Source of the DNA: a virus
Lineage: Duplodnaviria > Heunggongvirae > Uroviricota > Caudoviricetes
Direction: 5' to 3' (one strand)
DNA length: 12,534 nt
IMG/VR virus record: IMGVR_UViG_2600254997_000018
The position numbers and the translations under genes are program-made. Below the pieces are notes generated by a model. That model saw nothing but the letters and a program-made list of their open reading frames with translations, had not been told where the DNA came from and made no database searches. Numbering within the stretch: position 1 is the stretch's first letter; each line of letters starts with the position of its first letter. Shown one piece after another: positions 1,876 to 12,534 of this stretch.

Positions 1876-2301
1876 TTAGTGCATCACCACAGCATTCCCT
1901 GCCGGGCCGCCGCGATTCATCTGGTCATACAAAACAACCGCTGACGCAACAAAATCATCGACATCCTTCACCAGCCGATCCCTCCGTTCGACAATCTCAC
2001 GGTAATATTCAGAACTGTGGCTGCGCATACGGGCCACCAGCAGAGGCGGCATTGCCTTTTCGATCGCCGGTAACAGAGCCTGCATTTTTTCAACAGCATC
2101 AGGGGTGTCTTTATCCAGCCAACGGAAAATTTTCTGGGTATTACGAGCCAGGGCTTCCGGATGGCTGTCGTCGTACAGTTCCGGGAACGTCATCCCCAGT
2201 TCGAAATAAGTCCGGGCTATTTCAGCTGCAGGAACTTTCTCACCATCAGGATATGCCCAGGCATTCATCGCCATGCGGATGTGCTCATGTTTGATTTTCA
2301 T
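1876..2301 (-). CDS. ydaT: YdaT-like prophage protein (occupies the CII-like position)
   Basis: 141-aa ORF starting MKIKHEHI, immediately downstream of and overlapping the ydaS-like gene by 17 nt, as in Rac ydaS-ydaT. Assignment is from recalled similarity and synteny. Confidence 0.75.
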   Translation of the reverse strand: MKIKHEHIRMAMNAWAYPDGEKVPAAEIARTYFELGMTFPELYDDSHPEALARNTQKIFRWLDKDTPDAVEKMQALLPAIEKAMPPLLVARMRSHSSEYYREIVERRDRLVKDVDDFVASAVVLYDQMNRGGPAGNAVVMH

Positions 2302-2608
2302 GAATCATTTGCCTCTTGATGCTTCGGGTATGATCGTTTTCGTCATTTGGTTGCTTCATCGACATATTCTGCGAATAACATGACGAGCGTCGTAAGTATG
2401 TCCAATCAACATCAGGACGAAGTTCTTCACACAGGACACCACCTTTTGTTGCTCGTTCAATCGCAGGACATCTCTCAGCAGGCAACTGACGTACACCTTT
2501 GATCCATTGATTTACGCTTGGAGGAGATACACCTAAAAGCCTAGCCATTGCTGATTGCCCACCGACAACAGCACAAGCTCGTTTGAATGAATAGTTATCT
2601 TTTTTCAT
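2285..2608 (-). CDS. ydaS: YdaS-like Cro-type HTH DNA-binding protein
   Basis: Sequence MKKDNYSFKRACAVVGGQSAMARLLGVSPPSVNQWIKGVRQLPAERCPAIERA closely matches recalled Rac YdaS. Start placed at ATG 2608 (GGAG Shine-Dalgarno 8 nt upstream) rather than the track's GTG at 2629. Divergent from the repressor gene. Confidence 0.8.
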   Translation of the reverse strand: MKKDNYSFKRACAVVGGQSAMARLLGVSPPSVNQWIKGVRQLPAERCPAIERATKGGVLCEELRPDVDWTYLRRSSCYSQNMSMKQPNDENDHTRSIKRQMIHENQT

Positions 2609-2629
2609 CGAATGAACTCCAAAAAACAC

Positions 2630-2732
2630 ACAATAATATTAGGCTTAGCCTAATGTGATTGTCAATAGGCTATGCCTAACGATTCGAGAGTAGGGATTGC
2701 CTAACGCGATGCGCATAGGAGACTATTAAGCA
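2630..2732. promoter_or_regulatory. Divergent promoter/operator region between the ydaS-like and repressor genes
   Basis: Three operator-like sites about 26 bp apart: perfect 17-bp palindrome ATTAGGCTTAGCCTAAT (2638-2654), TAGGC-TAT-GCCTA (2666-2678), TAGGG-ATT-GCCTA (2691-2703). AGGAG Shine-Dalgarno at 2716-2720 before the repressor ATG at 2733. Confidence 0.5.
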
Positions 2733-3209
2733 ATGCTTAGTGGTAAAGACTTAGGCCGAGCGATAGAGCAGGCCATTAACAAAAAAATTGCATCAGGAGC
2801 CGTCAAATCAAAGGCGGAAATCGCACGTCATTTCAAAGTCCAACCACCATCAATCCATGACTGGATTAAGAAAGGTTCGATAAGTAAAGACAAACTTCCA
2901 GAACTATGGCGTTTCTTTTCTGATGTGGTTGGTCCAGAGCATTGGGGGCTTAACGAATACCCCATACCAACCCCATCCACTTCAGATACAAAAAGTGAAC
3001 TTTTAGACATAAACAGCCTTTATCAAGCCGCCTCTGATGAAAAAAGAGCAATTGTGGCTTTCCTCTTATCTGGAAATGCTACGGAGCCTAGTTGGGTTGA
3101 TCATGACGTTCGCGCCTACATTGCCGCAATGGAAATGAAGGTAGCTAACTATCTGAAAAATCAAGAATCAAAACGGAAAAGCCAGAACATCACCAAGACA
3201 GGAACTTAA
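2733..3209 (+). CDS. racR: RacR-like prophage repressor (HTH, no recognisable S24 peptidase/LexA-type domain)
   Basis: 158-aa ORF (same length as Rac RacR) with HTH-like stretch SKAEIARHFKVQPPSIHDWIKKGSIS. Divergent from ydaS/ydaT-like genes as in Rac. Identity from synteny, length and recalled similarity, not a search. Confidence 0.65.
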   Translation: MLSGKDLGRAIEQAINKKIASGAVKSKAEIARHFKVQPPSIHDWIKKGSISKDKLPELWRFFSDVVGPEHWGLNEYPIPTPSTSDTKSELLDINSLYQAASDEKRAIVAFLLSGNATEPSWVDHDVRAYIAAMEMKVANYLKNQESKRKSQNITKTGT

Positions 3210-3283
3210 ACTTATATGGTACGACGGGAAATTCCTAGTTCCCGTTAGTTAACTCCTACTACCTCTCCCACAAACCATCACCT

Positions 3284-3346
3284 ATTAGGTCGCACCCAAA
3301 TCATTAGGCGCAGCCTATTGACAGGCAATTAGGCATTTCCTATAGT
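3284..3346 (+). promoter_or_regulatory. Sigma70-like promoter (TTGACA-17-TATAGT) with flanking and embedded TTAGGC operator-like sites; putative promoter of the DUF1391-dicF-dicB operon
   Basis: -35 TTGACA 3318-3323, 17-bp spacer, -10 TATAGT 3341-3346. Palindrome TAGGC-GCA-GCCTA at 3305-3317 abuts the -35, ATTAGGC at 3328-3334 sits in the spacer, and ATTAGG also occurs at 3284-3289. Confidence 0.5.
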
Positions 3347-3527
3347 TTTCCCATACCAACCCATCCCGTCCCACACAATACAGGGCAATACCTAGAGTTA
3401 CCCGGCAGTGGTCAGGGATTAAGTAGCCAGCCCGAGGCGTATGAACATGACGGCGGGAACACTTTGTATAACAGCGCAGCAGGTTTTTAGTTCCGCTACC
3501 CCAGCGTTAAGGGGAAATGAGGTCAGC

Positions 3528-3942: not shown

Positions 3943-3995
3943 TTTCTGGTGACGTTTGGCGGTATCAGTTTTACTCCGTGGCTGCTCTGCCGCCC
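3943..3995 (+). ncRNA. dicF: DicF small RNA homolog (Hfq-dependent ftsZ-targeting sRNA of Qin-type prophages)
   Basis: TTTCTGGTGACGTTTGGCGGTATCAGTTTTACTCCGTGGCTGCTCTGCCGCCC differs at one position (A to G) from the 53-nt K-12 DicF as I recall it. A T5 run follows at 3996-4000. It lies upstream of the dicB-like gene, as in Qin. Confidence 0.85.
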
Positions 3996-4169
3996 TTTTT
4001 AAAGTGAATTTTGTGATGCGGTGAATGCGGCTATGCGCACGCGGAACAGTTAAAACCAAAAACAGTGTTATGGGTGGATTCTCTGTATCCGGCGTTAATT
4101 GTTAACTGGTTAACGTCACCTGGAGGCACCAGGCACTGCATCACAAAATTCATTGTTGAGGACGCGATA

Positions 4170-4358
4170 ATGGAAACGTTATTACCAAACGTTAATACGT
4201 CTGAAGGTTGTTTTGATATTGGTGTTCTGCTCAGTAACCGGGAGTTTACTGAAGATGCCATTAAGATGAGAAAATATGAACCTTATCTTCTCAATGATAA
4301 TTCCATACTTTCCAGAATTGCCCTTCTTGAACTTGGTATTATCGGAGAACAGCAGTGA
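4170..4358 (+). CDS. dicB: DicB-like cell-division inhibitor (MinC-activating small protein)
   Basis: 62-aa product METLLPNVNTSEGCFDIGV... matches K-12 DicB in length and N-terminus as recalled. GAGGA Shine-Dalgarno upstream of ATG 4170. The track ORF 4065-4358 is an upstream in-frame extension. Confidence 0.8.
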   Translation: METLLPNVNTSEGCFDIGVLLSNREFTEDAIKMRKYEPYLLNDNSILSRIALLELGIIGEQQ

Positions 4359-4638: not shown

Positions 4639-7110
4639 ATGAGTAAAATCTTTATTTGCGCTGCTATTCCTGACGAACAGGCCATAAAAGAAGATAGCGC
4701 TGTTGCGGTGGCCACTGCCATTGAAGCCGGTGATGAGCGTCGCGCACGCGCAAAATTTCACTGGCAATTTCTGGAGCAATTCCCGGCAGCTCAGGACTGC
4801 GCTTATAAATTTATTGTCTGCGAGGATAAACCCGGCATACCCCGCCCTGCCCTCGATTCCTGGGATACCGAATATATGCAGGAAAACCGCTGGGATGAGG
4901 AGTCAGCTTCCTTTGTACCGGTCGAACCAGAATCCGATCCGATGAACGTCAATTTTGACAAGCTGTCCCCTGAAGTACAGAACGCAGTCCTAGTTAAATT
5001 CGACACATGCGAAAACATCACCGTTGATATGGTGATTAGCGCACAGGAATTACTACAGGAAGACATGGCAACATTCGGCGGACATATCGTTGAAGCGTTG
5101 ATGAAAATGCCAGAAGTTAACGCCATGTATCCTGAACTTAAACTGCATGCCATCGGGTGGGTTAAGCATAAATGTGAGCCTGGCGCTAAATGGCCTGAAA
5201 TTCAGGCAGAGATGCGCATCTGGAAAAAACGTCGCGAAGGTGAACGCAAGGAAACCGGAAAATACACGTCTGTTGTTGATCTCACCCGCGCCAGAGTCAA
5301 CCAACAGAACACTGAAAACGCTGCTGAAAAAACCGGGGCTGTCACTGTTGCCATTCGCCGCGAATACAAACAGACATGGAAAACACTCGACAATGAACTG
5401 GCCTGCGCCCTCTGGCCCGGTGATGTGGATGCAGGAAACATTGACGGTACCATCCATCGCTGGGCGACAAATGAGGTTATCGACAAGGATCGCGAAGACT
5501 GGAAGCGTATCTCAGCATCAATGCGCAAACAGCCCGAAGCACTTGGCTATGACCGTCAGACTATTTTTGGCCTTGTTCGCGAACGTCCGATCGATATTCA
5601 CAAAGATCCCGTTGCACTGAACAAATATATCAGTGAATACCTGACGACAAAGGGCGTGTTTGAACATGAAGAAACAGACCAGAGCTCTACTGATGCTCTC
5701 CAGCCGTCAGCAGCACAAACTGCTCCAGTGGAGACGGCAGAATCCGATACTCAAAAAAATGAAATCCTGGTGGAAGCTGAACCATCTGTAGAGCGTGAAG
5801 GACCATTTTATTTCGTCTTTACCGATAAGGGCGGGGAAAAATACGGCAGGGCAAACAAACTTTCTGGTCTGGACAAGGCGCTGGCTGCCGGCGGTACCGA
5901 AATCTCAAAAGAAGAATATTTTGCCCGAAAAAATGGCACATACACGGGCTTACCGCAAAATGTGGATACCGCTGAAGATTCCGAACAATCAGAGCCGGTA
6001 AAAGTTACCGCTGACGAAGTAAACAAAATTATGCAGGCAGCCAATATCAGCCAGCCTGACGCCGATAAATTGCTTGCTGCATCACGTGGTGAATTTGTTG
6101 AAGGGATTAGCGACCCGAATGATCCGAAATGGGTGAAAGGGATCCAGAGTCGCGACGCTGAGGACCAGAATCAGCCCAACGTGAAACAAAATGAGCCAGA
6201 AGCGGAACAAAACAGCCCGGATACGCAACAAAACGGGCCAGAAGAACAACAACCAGAACCAGCAGTGCAACAGGAACTGGAAAAAGTTTGCACCGCATGC
6301 GGTCAGACCGGTGGCGGCAACTGTCCTGACTGTGGTGCGGTGATGGGGAACGCAACCTACCTGGAAACATTCGATGAAGAGAATCAGGCTGAAGCTCAGA
6401 AAAATGATCCGGAGGAAATGGAAGGCACTGAACATCTGCACAAGGAGAACACTGGCAGCGATCAGTATCACGCCAGCGATAATAAAACTGGCGAAACAGC
6501 AAATCCCTTAATTAAAGTGAACGGTCATCATGAAATCTCATCCACCAGCAGGTTGTGGCACCATCTGATGATTGACCTTGAAACAATGGGAAAAAATCCT
6601 GATGCGCCAATAAACGCTATAGCCGGTAAGTTTTTTGATCCGGCAACCGGAGAGATGGGGCCAGAATTCAGCAAAACTATCGATCTGGAAACCGCAGGTG
6701 GGGTCATCGATCGGGACACCATTAAGTGGTGGCTGAAACAGTCACGCGAAGCACAATCCTCCATTCTGACCGATGAAATCACGTTGGATGATGCACTGCT
6801 GCAATTCCGGGAATTTATCGACGAAAACTCCGGTGAATTTTTTGTTCAGGTCTGGGGTAACGGTGCAACTTTCGACAACGTGATTTTACGCCGTTCATAT
6901 GAACGGCAGGGGATCCCCTGCCCGTGGCGTTACACCAATGATCGCGATGTAAGAACGATGGTTGCTCTGGGACTGGTGATGGATTTCGACGCAAGAACGA
7001 CTATTCCATTCGAAGGTGAACGCCATAACGCCCTGCACGATGCGCGTTACCAGGCAAAATACGTTTCAGCCATCTGGCAAAAACTGCTCCCGAGTCAGGC
7101 TGATTTTTAA
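4639..7110 (+). CDS. Prophage exonuclease, 823 aa: RecE/exodeoxyribonuclease-VIII-like N-terminal region, CxxC-x7-CxxC zinc ribbon, C-terminal DnaQ-like (DEDDh) 3'-5' exonuclease domain
   Basis: Intact 2.47-kb ORF with GAGG Shine-Dalgarno. Motif DKLLAASRGEFVEGISDPNDPKWVKGIQ recalls RecE. C-terminal ~190 aa carry DEDDh motifs (MIDLETMG, WGNGATFDNVIL, HNALHDARYQ). Zinc ribbon encoded at 6289-6333, acidic/Gln-rich linker at ~6160-6280. Confidence 0.85.
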   Translation: MSKIFICAAIPDEQAIKEDSAVAVATAIEAGDERRARAKFHWQFLEQFPAAQDCAYKFIVCEDKPGIPRPALDSWDTEYMQENRWDEESASFVPVEPESDPMNVNFDKLSPEVQNAVLVKFDTCENITVDMVISAQELLQEDMATFGGHIVEALMKMPEVNAMYPELKLHAIGWVKHKCEPGAKWPEIQAEMRIWKKRREGERKETGKYTSVVDLTRARVNQQNTENAAEKTGAVTVAIRREYKQTWKTLDNELACALWPGDVDAGNIDGTIHRWATNEVIDKDREDWKRISASMRKQPEALGYDRQTIFGLVRERPIDIHKDPVALNKYISEYLTTKGVFEHEETDQSSTDALQPSAAQTAPVETAESDTQKNEILVEAEPSVEREGPFYFVFTDKGGEKYGRANKLSGLDKALAAGGTEISKEEYFARKNGTYTGLPQNVDTAEDSEQSEPVKVTADEVNKIMQAANISQPDADKLLAASRGEFVEGISDPNDPKWVKGIQSRDAEDQNQPNVKQNEPEAEQNSPDTQQNGPEEQQPEPAVQQELEKVCTACGQTGGGNCPDCGAVMGNATYLETFDEENQAEAQKNDPEEMEGTEHLHKENTGSDQYHASDNKTGETANPLIKVNGHHEISSTSRLWHHLMIDLETMGKNPDAPINAIAGKFFDPATGEMGPEFSKTIDLETAGGVIDRDTIKWWLKQSREAQSSILTDEITLDDALLQFREFIDENSGEFFVQVWGNGATFDNVILRRSYERQGIPCPWRYTNDRDVRTMVALGLVMDFDARTTIPFEGERHNALHDARYQAKYVSAIWQKLLPSQADF

Positions 7111-7168: not shown

Positions 7169-7372
7169 ATGAGCAGCATATTTTTAACCGAAAATGAATT
7201 GCAAACGTTAACGGGCTGCAAATATGCAAGCCACCAGCGCAACTGGTTAATAAAAAATGGGCTTCCGTTCTATACCAATCGTAGTGGAAAACCGATCGTC
7301 AGTCGGGAACTGTTTACCTGTATAAAAACTTTACCACCACGTGAGGCTGAACCTGATTTCGGTGCGATCTAA
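7169..7372 (+). CDS. Excisionase-like protein (Xis, DUF4224-type)
   Basis: 67-aa ORF directly upstream of the integrase. Its stop TAA overlaps the integrase ATG (TAATG at 7370-7374), the classic xis-int arrangement. Confidence 0.6.
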   Translation: MSSIFLTENELQTLTGCKYASHQRNWLIKNGLPFYTNRSGKPIVSRELFTCIKTLPPREAEPDFGAI

Positions 7373-8397
7373 TGGGAAGACGAAGGAAAAATCCCGAACA
7401 CGAAAAATTACCGCCAAAGGTATACCCCAATAAATATAGTTATGTATGGAAACCGACATCCAGAGAATCTGTAACCTTAACTGCAATCGAGGATGGTTTA
7501 GCCGCATTATGGAAAAAGTATGAAGAAACGGTTAACCATCGCGATCGCGCAATGACATTTGGGCGTTTGTGGGAAAAATTTCTCGCCAGCGCCTATTACA
7601 GCGAGCTTAGTCCTAGAACTCAAAAAGATTATCTGCAACATCAAAAAAAGCTGCTGGCCGTATTCGGTAAGGTGCTGGCCGATTCTGTAAAACCAGAGCA
7701 CATCAGACGATACATGGACAAAAGAGGCGAGCAGAGTAAAACGCAGGCAAACCATGAAAAAAGCAGTATGTCGCGCGTTTATAGTTGGGGGTATGAGCGA
7801 GGATACGTGAAGGCTAACCCATGTGCAGGTGTAAGTAAATTCAAGGCCAAAAACCGCGAACGATATGTAACCGACAAAGAATACCAGGCAGTATTAAGCG
7901 TTGCACCTCTTCCTGTTTTTATCGCAATGGAAATTGCCTATCTGTGTGCAGCGAGGGTTTCCGATGTGTTATCGCTGAAATGGGAGCAGATTGGAAACGA
8001 CGGGATCTTTATCCAGCAAGGGAAAACAGGGAAAAAACAGATAAAAGCATGGAGTCCACGATTACAGGCGGCGATCGAAAAAGCAAAACAGTTACCAACA
8101 TCCGCCTATGTAATCAGCAATCAATACGGCAACCGATATATGTACAAAGGCTTTAACGAAATGTGGGTAGAAGCAAGAAATCACGCAGGCAAAATTTCAG
8201 GTATTTTAACCGACTTCACCTTTCATGATCTGAAGGCGAAAGGAATTTCAGACTATGAAGGAAGCAGCCGGGATAAGCAACTTTTCTCTGGTCACAAAAC
8301 CGAAGGGCAAGTGCTAATCTATGACAGGAAGGTTAAAGTTTCACCAACACTTGATGTCCCGTTACCTGAAAATATTCCAAGAAAATATTCCAAGTAA
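7372..8397 (+). CDS. Phage integrase, tyrosine site-specific recombinase
   Basis: 341-aa ORF whose C-terminal region carries residues consistent with the tyrosine-recombinase catalytic set (R in ARVSD, H/K in HDLKAKG, Y in LIYDRK). It ends 52 bp from the 3' end of tRNA-Ser. Confidence 0.9.
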   Translation: MGRRRKNPEHEKLPPKVYPNKYSYVWKPTSRESVTLTAIEDGLAALWKKYEETVNHRDRAMTFGRLWEKFLASAYYSELSPRTQKDYLQHQKKLLAVFGKVLADSVKPEHIRRYMDKRGEQSKTQANHEKSSMSRVYSWGYERGYVKANPCAGVSKFKAKNRERYVTDKEYQAVLSVAPLPVFIAMEIAYLCAARVSDVLSLKWEQIGNDGIFIQQGKTGKKQIKAWSPRLQAAIEKAKQLPTSAYVISNQYGNRYMYKGFNEMWVEARNHAGKISGILTDFTFHDLKAKGISDYEGSSRDKQLFSGHKTEGQVLIYDRKVKVSPTLDVPLPENIPRKYSK

Positions 8398-8449: not shown

Positions 8450-8539
8450 TGGCGGAGAGAGGGGGATTTGAACCCCCGGTGGAGTTGCCCCCACTCCGGT
8501 TTTCGAGACCGGTCCGTTCAGCCGCTCCGGCATCTCTCC
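8450..8539 (-). tRNA. serU: tRNA-Ser (anticodon CGA)
   Basis: Reverse complement reads GGAGAGATGCCGGAGCGGCTGAACGGACCGGTCTCGAAAACCGGAG...TCTCTCCGCCA: 7-bp acceptor stem, anticodon loop CU-CGA-AA, long variable arm, encoded CCA. Matches E. coli serU as recalled. Confidence 0.9.
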
Positions 8540-8632
8540 GTTCAGATGGTTGCCATGATGCCAGGAAATTTGGCATTTTAACAGTCCCTGTCCGTGCAAT
8601 TTTGTTCAAGTGACGAGTTTGCGAGCAAAACG

Positions 8633-9430
8633 ATGATTAAGTGGCCCTGGAAAGTACAAGAATCAGCACATCAAACTGCCCTTCCCTGGCAGGAAGCACT
8701 ATCGATCCCCCTTTTAACGTGTCTGACAGAACAGGAACAAAGCAAATTAGTCGCTCTTGCCGAACGTTTTTTACAACAAAAACGGCTTGTTCCTTTACAG
8801 GGCTTTGAGCTGAATTCATTAAGAAGCTGCCGGATAGCACTTCTATTTTGCCTGCCCGTTCTGGAGTTAGGACTGGAATGGCTGGATGGTTTTCATGAAG
8901 TCTTAATTTATCCTGCGCCATTTGTGGTCGATGATGAATGGGAAGACGATGTCGGTCTGGTGCATAACCAACGTATTGTTCAGTCAGGTCAGAGCTGGCA
9001 GCAAGGGCCTATCGTTTTGAACTGGTTGGATATACAAGATTCTTTTGATGCTTCTGGTTTTAACCTGATTATTCATGAAGTCGCTCATAAGCTGGACACC
9101 CGTAACGGCGATCGCGCCAGCGGAGTTCCCTTTATTTCGTTGCGTGAGGTTGCTGGCTGGGAACACGATCTTCATGCTGCAATGAACAACATTCAGGAAG
9201 AAATCGAATTAGTTGGTGAGAATGCGGCGAGCATTGATGCTTATGCTGCCAGTGATCCTGCTGAATGTTTTGCCGTACTTTCTGAATATTTCTTTAGCGC
9301 CCCAGAACTTTTTGCTCCTCGTTTCCCTTCATTGTGGCAACGTTTCTGTCAATTTTATCAACAAGATCCTTTGCAGAGACTGCATCACGCTAATGATACA
9401 GACTCGTTTTCGGCGACGAATGTTCATTAA
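8633..9430 (+). CDS. mtfA: MtfA, Mlc titration factor A (zinc-dependent peptidase, HEXXH motif)
   Basis: 265-aa product from ATG 8633 ([20 protein letters not shown]...) matches E. coli MtfA as recalled, including the HEVAHKLD motif. The track ORF 8594-9430 is an upstream in-frame extension. Sits between serU and asnT as in K-12. Confidence 0.9.
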
Positions 9431-9530: not shown

Positions 9531-9606
9531 TCCTCTGTAGTTCAGTCGGTAGAACGGCGGACTGTTAATCCGTATGTCACTGGTTCGAGTCCAGTCAGAG
9601 GAGCCA
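9531..9606 (+). tRNA. asnT: tRNA-Asn (anticodon GUU)
   Basis: TCCTCTGTAGTTCAGTCGGTAGAACGGCGGACTGTTAATCCGTATGTCACTGGTTCGAGTCCAGTCAGAGGAGCCA, 76 nt, matches E. coli tRNA-Asn as recalled. Copy assignment (asnT) is by position next to mtfA. Confidence 0.95.
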
Positions 9607-11209: not shown

Positions 11210-12419
11210 TCATAATTTCCCCAAAGCGTAACCATGTGTGAATAAATTTTGAGCTAGTAGGGTTGCAGCCACGAGTAAGTCTTCCCTTGTTATTGTGTAG
11301 CCAGAATGCCGCAAAACTTCCATGCCTAAGCGAACTGTTGAGAGTACGTTTCGATTTCTGACTGTGTTAGCCTGGAAGTGCTTAGTCCCAACCTTGTTTC
11401 TGAGCATGAACGCCCGCAAGCCAACATGTTAGTTGAAGCATCAGGGCGATTAGCAGCATGATATCAAAACGCTACTGAGCTGCCCGTTCGGCTATGGCGT
11501 AGGCCTAGCCCGTAGGCAGGACTTTTCAAGTCTCGGAAGGTTTCTTCAATCTGCATTCGCTTCGAATAGATATTAACAAGTTGTTTGGGTGTTCGAATTT
11601 CAACAGGTAAGTTAGTTGCTAGAACCATGGCTCCTTTGCCGACGCTGAGTAGATTTTAGGTGACGGGTGGTGACAATGAGTCCGTGTCGAGCGCTGATTT
11701 TTTCGGCCTTTAGAGCGAGATTTATACAATAGAATTTGGCATGAGATTGGATTGCTTTTAGTCAGCCTCTTATAGCCTAAAGTCTTTGAGTGACTAGATG
11801 ACATATCATGTAAGTTGCTGATAGGTTTCCAGTTTTCCGCTCCTAGGTCTGCATATTGTACTTTTCCTCTTACTCGACTTAACCAGTACCAACCCAGCTT
11901 CTCAACGGATTTATACCATGGCACTTTAAAGCCAGCATCACTGACAATGAGCGGTGTGGTGTTACTCGGTAGAATGCTCGCAAGGTCGGCTAGAAATTGG
12001 TCATGAGCTTTCTTTGAACATTGCTCTGAAAGCGGGAACGCTTTCTCATAAAGAGTAACAGAACGACCGTGTAGTGCGACTGAAGCTCGCAATACCATAA
12101 GTCGTTTTTGCTCACGAATATCAGACCAGTCAACAAGTACAATGGGCATCGTATTGCCCGAACAGATAAAGCTAGCATGCCAACGGTATACAGCGAGTCG
12201 CTCTTTGTGGAGGTGACGATTACCTAACAATCGGTCGATTCGTTTGATGTTATGTTTTGTTCTCGCTTTGGTTGGCAGGTTACGGCCAAGTTCGGTAAGA
12301 GTGAGAGTTTTACAGTCAAGTAATGCGTGGCAAGCCAACGTTAAGCTGTTGAGTCGTTTTAAGTGTAATTCGGGGCAGAATTGGTAAAGAGAGTCGTGTA
12401 AAATATCGAGTTCGCACAT
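11210..12419 (-). pseudogene. IS10 transposase, frame-disrupted (N-terminal 266 aa intact, middle and C-terminal parts in other frames)
   Basis: ORF 11619-12419 matches IS10 Tnp from MCELDILHDSLYQF... but stops at ...AKEPWF*. The expected continuation VLATNLPVEIRTPKQ... is in another frame, and the C-terminal ...HFQANTVRNRNVLSTV...GYALGKL is in ORF 11210-11419. At least three indels within ~200 bp. Confidence 0.8.
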
Positions 12420-12480
12420 CTTGTTGTCTGATTATTGATTTTTCGCGAAACCATTTGATCATATGACAAGATGTGTATCT
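12412..12480 (+). ncRNA. IS10 antisense RNA-OUT (predicted from position in IS10)
   Basis: Established IS10 layout puts pOUT about 115 bp from the outside end, transcribing outward. The window shows the expected stem: CGCACATCTTGTTGTC (12413-12428) pairs with GACAAGATGTG (12465-12475). GATC at 12467-12470. Confidence 0.5.
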
Positions 12481-12534
12481 ACCTTAACTTAATGATTTTT
12501 ATCAAAATCATTAGGGGATTCATCAGGCGTAGCG

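Follow-up and report, generated by a model that had tools for sequence, protein, structure and literature searches.

TAGGC-type operator dyads of a RacR-type immunity switch in a Rac-like Escherichia coli prophage, with a second site cluster at a predicted promoter beyond racR

The best-described relative of the locus studied here is the immunity region of the Rac prophage in Escherichia coli K-12. Krishnamurthi et al. (PMC5700373) described three repeats in the racR-ydaS region of this strain and observed three RacR complexes in EMSA with the intergenic region and one with a single-repeat fragment, ChIP enrichment of RacR at the intergenic region, and RacR-dependent repression of ydaS in a reporter assay. 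Wisniewska et al. (PMC9638921) mapped DNase I footprints of RacR over the repeats, with the ydaS promoter protected at the lowest RacR concentration, and derived the operator consensus (T/A)TAGGC-n3-GCCTA(T/A), conserved in several Enterobacteriaceae, with one operator spanning the racR ATG. The same study reported three racR promoters, one of them leaderless, discussed an AlphaFold model of RacR, and found that YdaS represses its own gene and does not repress racR. Four operators were counted by Wons et al. (PMC11879457). Cooperativity of RacR binding is an assumption in this literature, the RacR regulon has been stated to be as yet uncharacterized (PMC11014345), and RacR has been grouped with antirepressor-controlled repressors (PMC3121763, PMC10448788).

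Judging from its sequence, the DNA analyzed here, a stretch of 12,534 bp (hereafter, the window), is a Rac-like E. coli prophage. Identity of the region amounts to 99.9% with a prophage of E. coli 14EC047, 99% with O157:H7 prophages, and about 87% with K-12 Rac, and 1,085 of 5,426 complete E. coli genomes (about a fifth) possess a region matching at least 80% of the window's. In 14EC047, the element is ordered racR, DUF1391 gene, dicB, exonuclease, integrase, tRNA-Ser, and mtfA, in agreement with the window's matches to DicF, DicB, an integrase-like gene, tRNA, and MtfA. The prophage differs from K-12 Rac in its location at tRNA-Ser/mtfA and in its dicF-dicB-type early-left operon, which takes the place of ydaG-ydaF-sieB-kilR. 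Toward the prophage end, with features at 7372-8397, 8453-8539, 8594-9430, 9531-9603, and 11619-12481, the order is integrase-like gene, tRNA (tRNA-Ser in the 14EC047 annotation), host mtfA, and second tRNA; beyond the second tRNA, an IS4-family transposase and an RNA-OUT antisense RNA (98.8 bits) indicate an IS10-like element. The early region, including the operator dyads and the two Dic determinants, comprises the following features.

1876-2301, minus strand: ydaT, CII-like regulator, 141 aa (Pfam YdaT_toxin, 2.8e-10)
2285-2608, minus strand: ydaS, Cro-like helix-turn-helix gene, 107 aa (Pfam YdaS_toxin, 3.8e-30; P22_Cro, 1e-08; annotated homolog)
2291-2308, minus strand: YdaT-box ATGATT-CATGAA-AATCAA at the ydaS/ydaT junction
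2636-2665, minus strand: ydaS-ydaT promoter (PR-like), -35 TTGACA at 2665-2660, 18-nt spacer, -10 TAATAT at 2641-2636
2640-2652: site A, TAGGC-TTA-GCCTA, no mismatch, core of a perfect 17-bp dyad
2666-2678: site B, TAGGC-TAT-GCCTA, no mismatch, abutting the -35 of the ydaS promoter
2691-2703: site C, TAGGG-ATT-GCCTA, 1 mismatch, upstream of the racR start
2727-2739: site D, TAAGC-AAT-GCTTA, 2 mismatches, straddling the racR ATG
2733-3209, plus strand: racR, repressor, 158 aa (NCBIfam NF049929 RacR equivalog, 246.8 bits)
2751-2756, plus strand: isolated half-site TTAGGC inside the racR coding sequence
3944-3995: DicF sRNA (Rfam, 75 bits)
4065-4358: DicB (NCBIfam)

The repressor gene next to the dyads encodes a RacR ortholog, which scores above the equivalog cut-off of 200 bits and is 92% identical to K-12 RacR. 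One difference between the two proteins, H42 in the window and Y42 in K-12, falls inside the putative recognition helix. RacR of the window has no Pfam domain (neither HTH_3 nor S24), and a PDB sequence search with it returned no relative. The only clues to its family came from the NCBIfam equivalog and from a local resemblance to the helix-turn-helix of YdaS. The Pfam YdaS_toxin model weakly matches RacR homologs, below threshold.

An earlier note on this DNA had described three operator-like palindromes, with centers about 26 bp apart and including a perfect palindrome of 17 bp, between divergently transcribed repressor and Cro-like genes. These palindromes are genuine TAGGC-N3-GCCTA dyads (sites A to C), centered at 2646, 2672, and 2697 and therefore spaced by 26 and 25 bp, and ATTAGGCTTAGCCTAAT at 2638-2654 forms a perfect 8+1+8 palindrome. 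The gap of 124 bp in which the dyads are found is bounded by the ydaS ATG (2608, minus strand) and the racR ATG (2733, plus strand), the flanking genes being divergent as described, namely, the RacR equivalog and a gene of the YdaS/P22-Cro type. The count of three proved too low: with site D, which corresponds to "O3" of PMC9638921 and falls on the border of the stretch covered by the note (2630-2732), and two sites beyond this stretch, downstream of racR, the full set is four intergenic sites plus two. Copies of the inverted repeat (T/A)TAGGC-n3-GCCTA(T/A) thus start at 2640, 2666, 2691, and 2727. Site A occupies the stretch between the two hexamers of the ydaS promoter and extends into the -10, and site C takes the position at which the K-12 racR promoters were mapped. 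Dyads thus overlap the ydaS promoter and, with site D, the racR start. A search for TAGGC-N3-GCCTA with at most one mismatch found 5 matches in the 12.5-kb window, all in the two clusters, where chance predicts 0.20; in 200 shuffles, a count of 5 was never reached. Related prophage DNA (1.2 Mb) contained 586 such sites, 566 of them clustered; the 20 isolated ones, against a chance expectation of about 36, place the background density of isolated dyads at the chance level. A similar density in unrelated sequence, named by the earlier note as a refutation of its reading, was not seen.

When the intergenic region was aligned with that of K-12, 94% of the columns were identical, including every half-site base, and the differences were confined to the 3-bp spacers and the linkers; the window region is 1 bp longer. 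The counterpart of site A in K-12, for example, reads TAGGC-GAC-GCCTA, with the same half-sites and a different spacer. All four intergenic dyads, and likewise the two downstream ones, have half-sites identical to those of K-12, and the intergenic sites are positional orthologs of the footprinted ones. The ydaS-ydaT promoter matches at 10 of 12 hexamer positions, and identical hexamers with identical spacing were defined in K-12 by primer extension and mutagenesis (PMC9638921, PMC11879457). The extra half-site inside racR has been noted for K-12 too (PMC5700373, PMC9638921). The -10 boxes of K-12 PracR2 and PracR3 (AGTAAG and GAGAAT) are not conserved, the aligned bases of the window being TCGAGA and GAGACT; therefore, the racR promoter positions in the window are putative. 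From the EMSA, ChIP, and DNase I data on K-12, we infer that the window allele of RacR binds these sites.

With the consensus, the four positions, the half-sites, the ydaS hexamers, the additional racR half-site, and an orthologous repressor in common, the window is an allelic variant of K-12 Rac at about 87% DNA identity. We hold with high confidence that its dyads are operators of a RacR-type immunity switch in a Rac-like lambdoid prophage. The interpretation of the palindromes as lambda OR-like operators of a RacR-like repressor is essentially correct, in that their half-sites are identical to RacR-bound sites of K-12 Rac, and it was already known. In view of the K-12 alignment, the identical half-sites, and the unchanged ydaS hexamers, what had been noticed is an allelic copy of a characterized operator set and adds nothing to the published K-12 work. 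A modest extension of the known system is provided by the layout of four plus two sites and by a predicted, family-conserved OL/PL-like target of RacR, composed as follows.

3285-3297: possible degenerate third downstream site, TAGGT-CGC-ACCCA, 3 mismatches, weak
3305-3317: distal site, TAGGC-GCA-GCCTA, no mismatch, abutting the -35 of the downstream promoter, 96 bp after the racR stop
3318-3346, plus strand: predicted early-left (PL-like) promoter, TTGACA at 3318-3323, 17 nt, TATAGT at 3341-3346, 11 of 12 matches
3330-3342: proximal site, TAGGC-ATT-TCCTA, 1 mismatch, filling the promoter spacer and overlapping the -10, 121 bp after the racR stop

Judged by sequence, a second group of operator sites lies past the repressor gene, at a predicted early promoter that faces outward. 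The promoter is directed into the DUF1391 gene, DicF, dicB, and a recE-like gene. This cassette and the ydaS promoter are built alike, with a distal site, TTGACA directly after it, 6 nt, and a proximal site whose end starts the -10; in general form, the cassette reads ATTAGGC-N3-GCCTA, TTGACA, N6, and TAGGC-N3-NCCTA overlapping the -10. In K-12, it is located in the racR-ydaG intergenic region (7034-7071 of locus L001). Among the homologous RacR-type loci compared, every one with enough flank contains exactly one such pair, 25 bp apart and 88 to about 1,630 bp after the repressor gene, and among 83 distinct cassette versions or modules, the half-sites and the -35 are conserved and the spacers are not. 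The possible third site lies about 20 bp upstream of the distal site and has 2 mismatches in E. ruysiae; its left half, CTATTAGGT (window 3283-3297), is its sole conserved part and is present in K-12 and other E. coli-type loci.

We consider it probable that the downstream cassette is a functional RacR-repressed promoter. If so, RacR would directly gate the early-left operon, that is, DicF, DicB, and the RecE-like exonuclease in the window prophage and ydaG, ydaF, kilR, racC, and recE in K-12. A decrease in RacR in K-12 raises ydaF, ydaG, kilR, ydaE, and racC 40- to 70-fold (PMC6765115, PMC11014345), a derepression that a second RacR target would explain. In O157-like prophages of the window type, such a target would put DicF and DicB under RacR. 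It is tempting to speculate that the cassette might pair by DNA looping with the intergenic sites about 600 bp away. In the RacR literature covered, we found no description of the cassette, the genes behind it being mentioned in transcriptome studies only; a 2026 bioRxiv CRISPRi-racR preprint lay outside this coverage and may contain one. The leader at 3353-3445 folded no better than its shuffles (z = 0.63) and gave no evidence of a nut-like structure. The location of DicF and DicB downstream of the predicted early-left promoter is an example of mosaicism, in which a RacR-type immunity region would take over the control of a Qin-like dicBF operon from DicA.

Conservation of the sites extends well beyond E. 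coli. In a set of 39 distinct intergenic regions of the E. coli type, variation affects 2 of 40 half-site columns versus 34 of 65 other non-coding columns (Fisher p ~2e-7). Since the sequences are related, this result is to be read as a footprint and not as an independent sample; moreover, the sites in the conservation tests were partly chosen by motif match. RacR homologs of 58 to 78% identity were found in Mixta, Proteus, Klebsiella, Achromobacter, a Nitrosomonas MAG, and viral contigs, and in these lineages, the sites are fixed at -66, -41, and -6 from the start codon, with free spacers. Where the flank allows its detection in distant hosts, the downstream pair is again exactly 25 bp apart. 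The position of site D is occupied in other genera by a 1-mismatch site, TAGGC-AAT-GCTTA, and site C is the counterpart of their -41 site, AATAGGAATTGCCTAA. Three intergenic sites in other genera stand against four in the E. coli type, whose layout suggests a duplication of one 25-26-bp operator unit. The one -41 site found in other lineages (loci L006-L012) has its left flank in common with site B and its right half in common with site C.

The conserved part of RacR is formed by the N-terminal 75 to 80 residues. According to Pfam, this domain is fused to Peptidase_S24 in an Achromobacter locus (L010, 1501-2601), an Aeromonas locus (L013, 1501-2178), and a viral contig (L174, 1209-1919), and L012 (1501-2589) appears to be a further S24 fusion, solely by its sequence similarity to L010. 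TAGGC-N3-GCCTA operators are retained in L010, L012, and L174, and only 2-mismatch versions remain in L013. Retention of the motif in the S24 fusions suggests that TAGGC is read by the N-terminal domain, and RacR of E. coli, itself not cleavable, probably has SOS-cleavable relatives in these fused repressors. When IMG/VR was scanned with the cassette DNA only, 120 viral loci were obtained. In 110 of them, the strand of the cassette also encodes, upstream of it, a RacR N-terminal domain; the other 10 have no match to this domain, and most of these have little upstream sequence. Two of the 10, the viral contigs L339 and L346, possess the downstream cassette and a different XRE-type repressor (243 and 226 aa, respectively, with the sequence GIAAPSVAQWE), and their upstream TAGGC-type sites are 46 bp apart versus the usual 25 to 26 bp.

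In many E. coli prophages, similarity to the window begins only at about 3352. The leader of about 100 bp that follows (window ~3352-3450; 2501-2599 in L353) is 88 to 93% identical in many E. coli prophages with different repressors (H15-H25). One of these loci, L353, encodes a different repressor followed by a different palindrome at the equivalent downstream place, with related repeats in its intergenic region. These repeats, of the TACCC-N-AGGTA type, are located at 1900-1990 and 2440-2495, that is, in the repressor/cro intergenic region and just upstream of the common leader, and include the palindrome TACCCATAGGTATTTAC...AAATACCTATGGGTA; hence, the layout is the same and the operator is different. 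Homology that begins only past the downstream -10, together with the repeats proper to L353, places the end of the exchangeable immunity module just after this -10, as in lambdoid phages.

The sites could also belong to another protein of the same region. It is conceivable, albeit on balance rather doubtful, that the Cro-like YdaS is a further, or even the main, protein to bind the dyads, competing with RacR as lambda Cro competes with CI. A YdaS-family gene was found divergent from the racR homolog in 9 of the 11 compared loci with a callable upstream ORF, three of them confirmed by Pfam. The helix-turn-helix segments of RacR (2733-2975) and YdaS (2285-2608) share 41% identity over 29 aa, including PPS(I/V)xxWIK (E = 3e-6 in a single comparison), which raises the possibility that the two proteins may be distant paralogs reading the same half-site. 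Moreover, the footprints of PaaR2 and YdaS overlap in CP-933P (PMC8630535), and YdaS represses its own gene in K-12 (PMC9638921). However, RacR alone footprints the K-12 repeats, with one complex per repeat (PMC5700373, PMC9638921), racR was not repressed by YdaS in K-12 (PMC9638921), and we found no YdaS footprint on TAGGC dyads reported in the RacR/YdaS literature. A YdaS target is in any case compatible with binding by RacR rather than opposed to it.

YdaT, the CII-like regulator, is a far weaker candidate. In K-12, it protects about 100 bp of the racR-ydaS intergenic region and affects racR expression (PMC11879457). Its motif, however, is a different one, an 18-bp repeat of the form ATGATT-n6-AATCAA (PMC11879457, PMC9986795), and the TAGGC dyads travel with the N-terminal domain of RacR, which together make it highly improbable that they are binding sites of YdaT. 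The sole good match to the YdaT motif in the window is at 2291-2308, away from the dyads, and the motif was rejected as an explanation of the TAGGC sites on this ground. This match agrees exactly with the K-12 reference repeat (PMC11879457), and thus the CII-like arm of the switch seems intact in the prophage. That the palindromes are chance repeats, structural hairpins, or a terminator-like stem with no protein partner has next to no likelihood: although a simple scan called 2654-2638 (minus strand) terminator-like, this stem lies upstream of the ydaS transcription start, five sites occur in the window where 0.2 are expected, site positions relative to -35 and -10 are fixed across genera, no Rfam family was found in 2600-3440, and the half-sites are invariant and not co-varying, with loop and spacer bases varying freely.

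As operators of RacR, the dyads would work in the following way. RacR would read 17-bp dyads of the form A(T/A)TAGGC-N3-GCCTA(A/T)T through its N-terminal helix-turn-helix domain, presumably as a dimer, given the dyad symmetry. Occupancy of sites A and B would exclude RNA polymerase and silence ydaS and ydaT, as was shown for K-12, and presumably also the replication genes that follow. At higher RacR levels, sites C and D, which cover the promoter region and start codon of racR, would mediate negative autoregulation, for which K-12 provides evidence in outline, and the downstream pair would occlude the early-left promoter. Since RacR of the window has no S24 domain, induction by RecA-stimulated cleavage is unlikely. 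In Rac-type prophages, this switch silences the toxic ydaS-ydaT genes and decides between chromosomal retention and excision.

The comparison with the OR layout of lambda, drawn by the earlier note, holds for the operators of RacR and can be extended to OL, CI, and Cro. In both systems, at least three dyads separate the divergent repressor and cro-like genes and overlap the promoters of both, and past the repressor gene, a second operator cluster is placed at a promoter that faces outward. The dyads of 17 bp overlap promoters and follow each other at about 2.4 helical turns in both cases; the spacing of 25 to 26 bp, similar to the 23 to 24 bp of lambda, would be compatible with pairwise cooperativity. 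A leaderless repressor mRNA is a further likeness, based for RacR on K-12 data (PMC9638921). In contrast to CI, RacR shows no sequence relationship to this repressor (no Pfam or PDB match) and has no S24 autocleavage domain, S24 fusions being found only in the distant L010, L013, and L174. The number of sites (4 + 2 versus 3 + 3) and the site covering the repressor start codon also set the RacR system apart. The analogy is incomplete in one respect: since YdaS is reported not to repress racR (PMC9638921), a lambda-style two-way switch is not fully established.

CP-933P of O157:H7 (PMC8630535, PMC9986795) shares the YdaS/YdaT partners and the lambda-like logic, with promoters PR933P/PRM933P and PL933P; past its repressor operon, it has a PL/OL counterpart that is backed by experiment. 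Its repressor is PaaR2, not RacR, its operators are 18-bp palindromes with the consensus GTTTAGTAA, and its repressor operon includes a toxin-antitoxin pair. The Qin DicA/DicC system with dicBp and the Gifsy repressors GfoR and GtgR (PMC10448788, PMC3121763) differ from RacR in repressor sequence and operator motif, and antirepressor induction was shown for them and not for RacR. They are, like RacR, which has been placed among them, short repressors that are not cleaved by RecA. In Qin, DicA represses the dicBF operon via operators at PR-like and PL-like promoters, which is the very role predicted here for RacR at 3305-3346.
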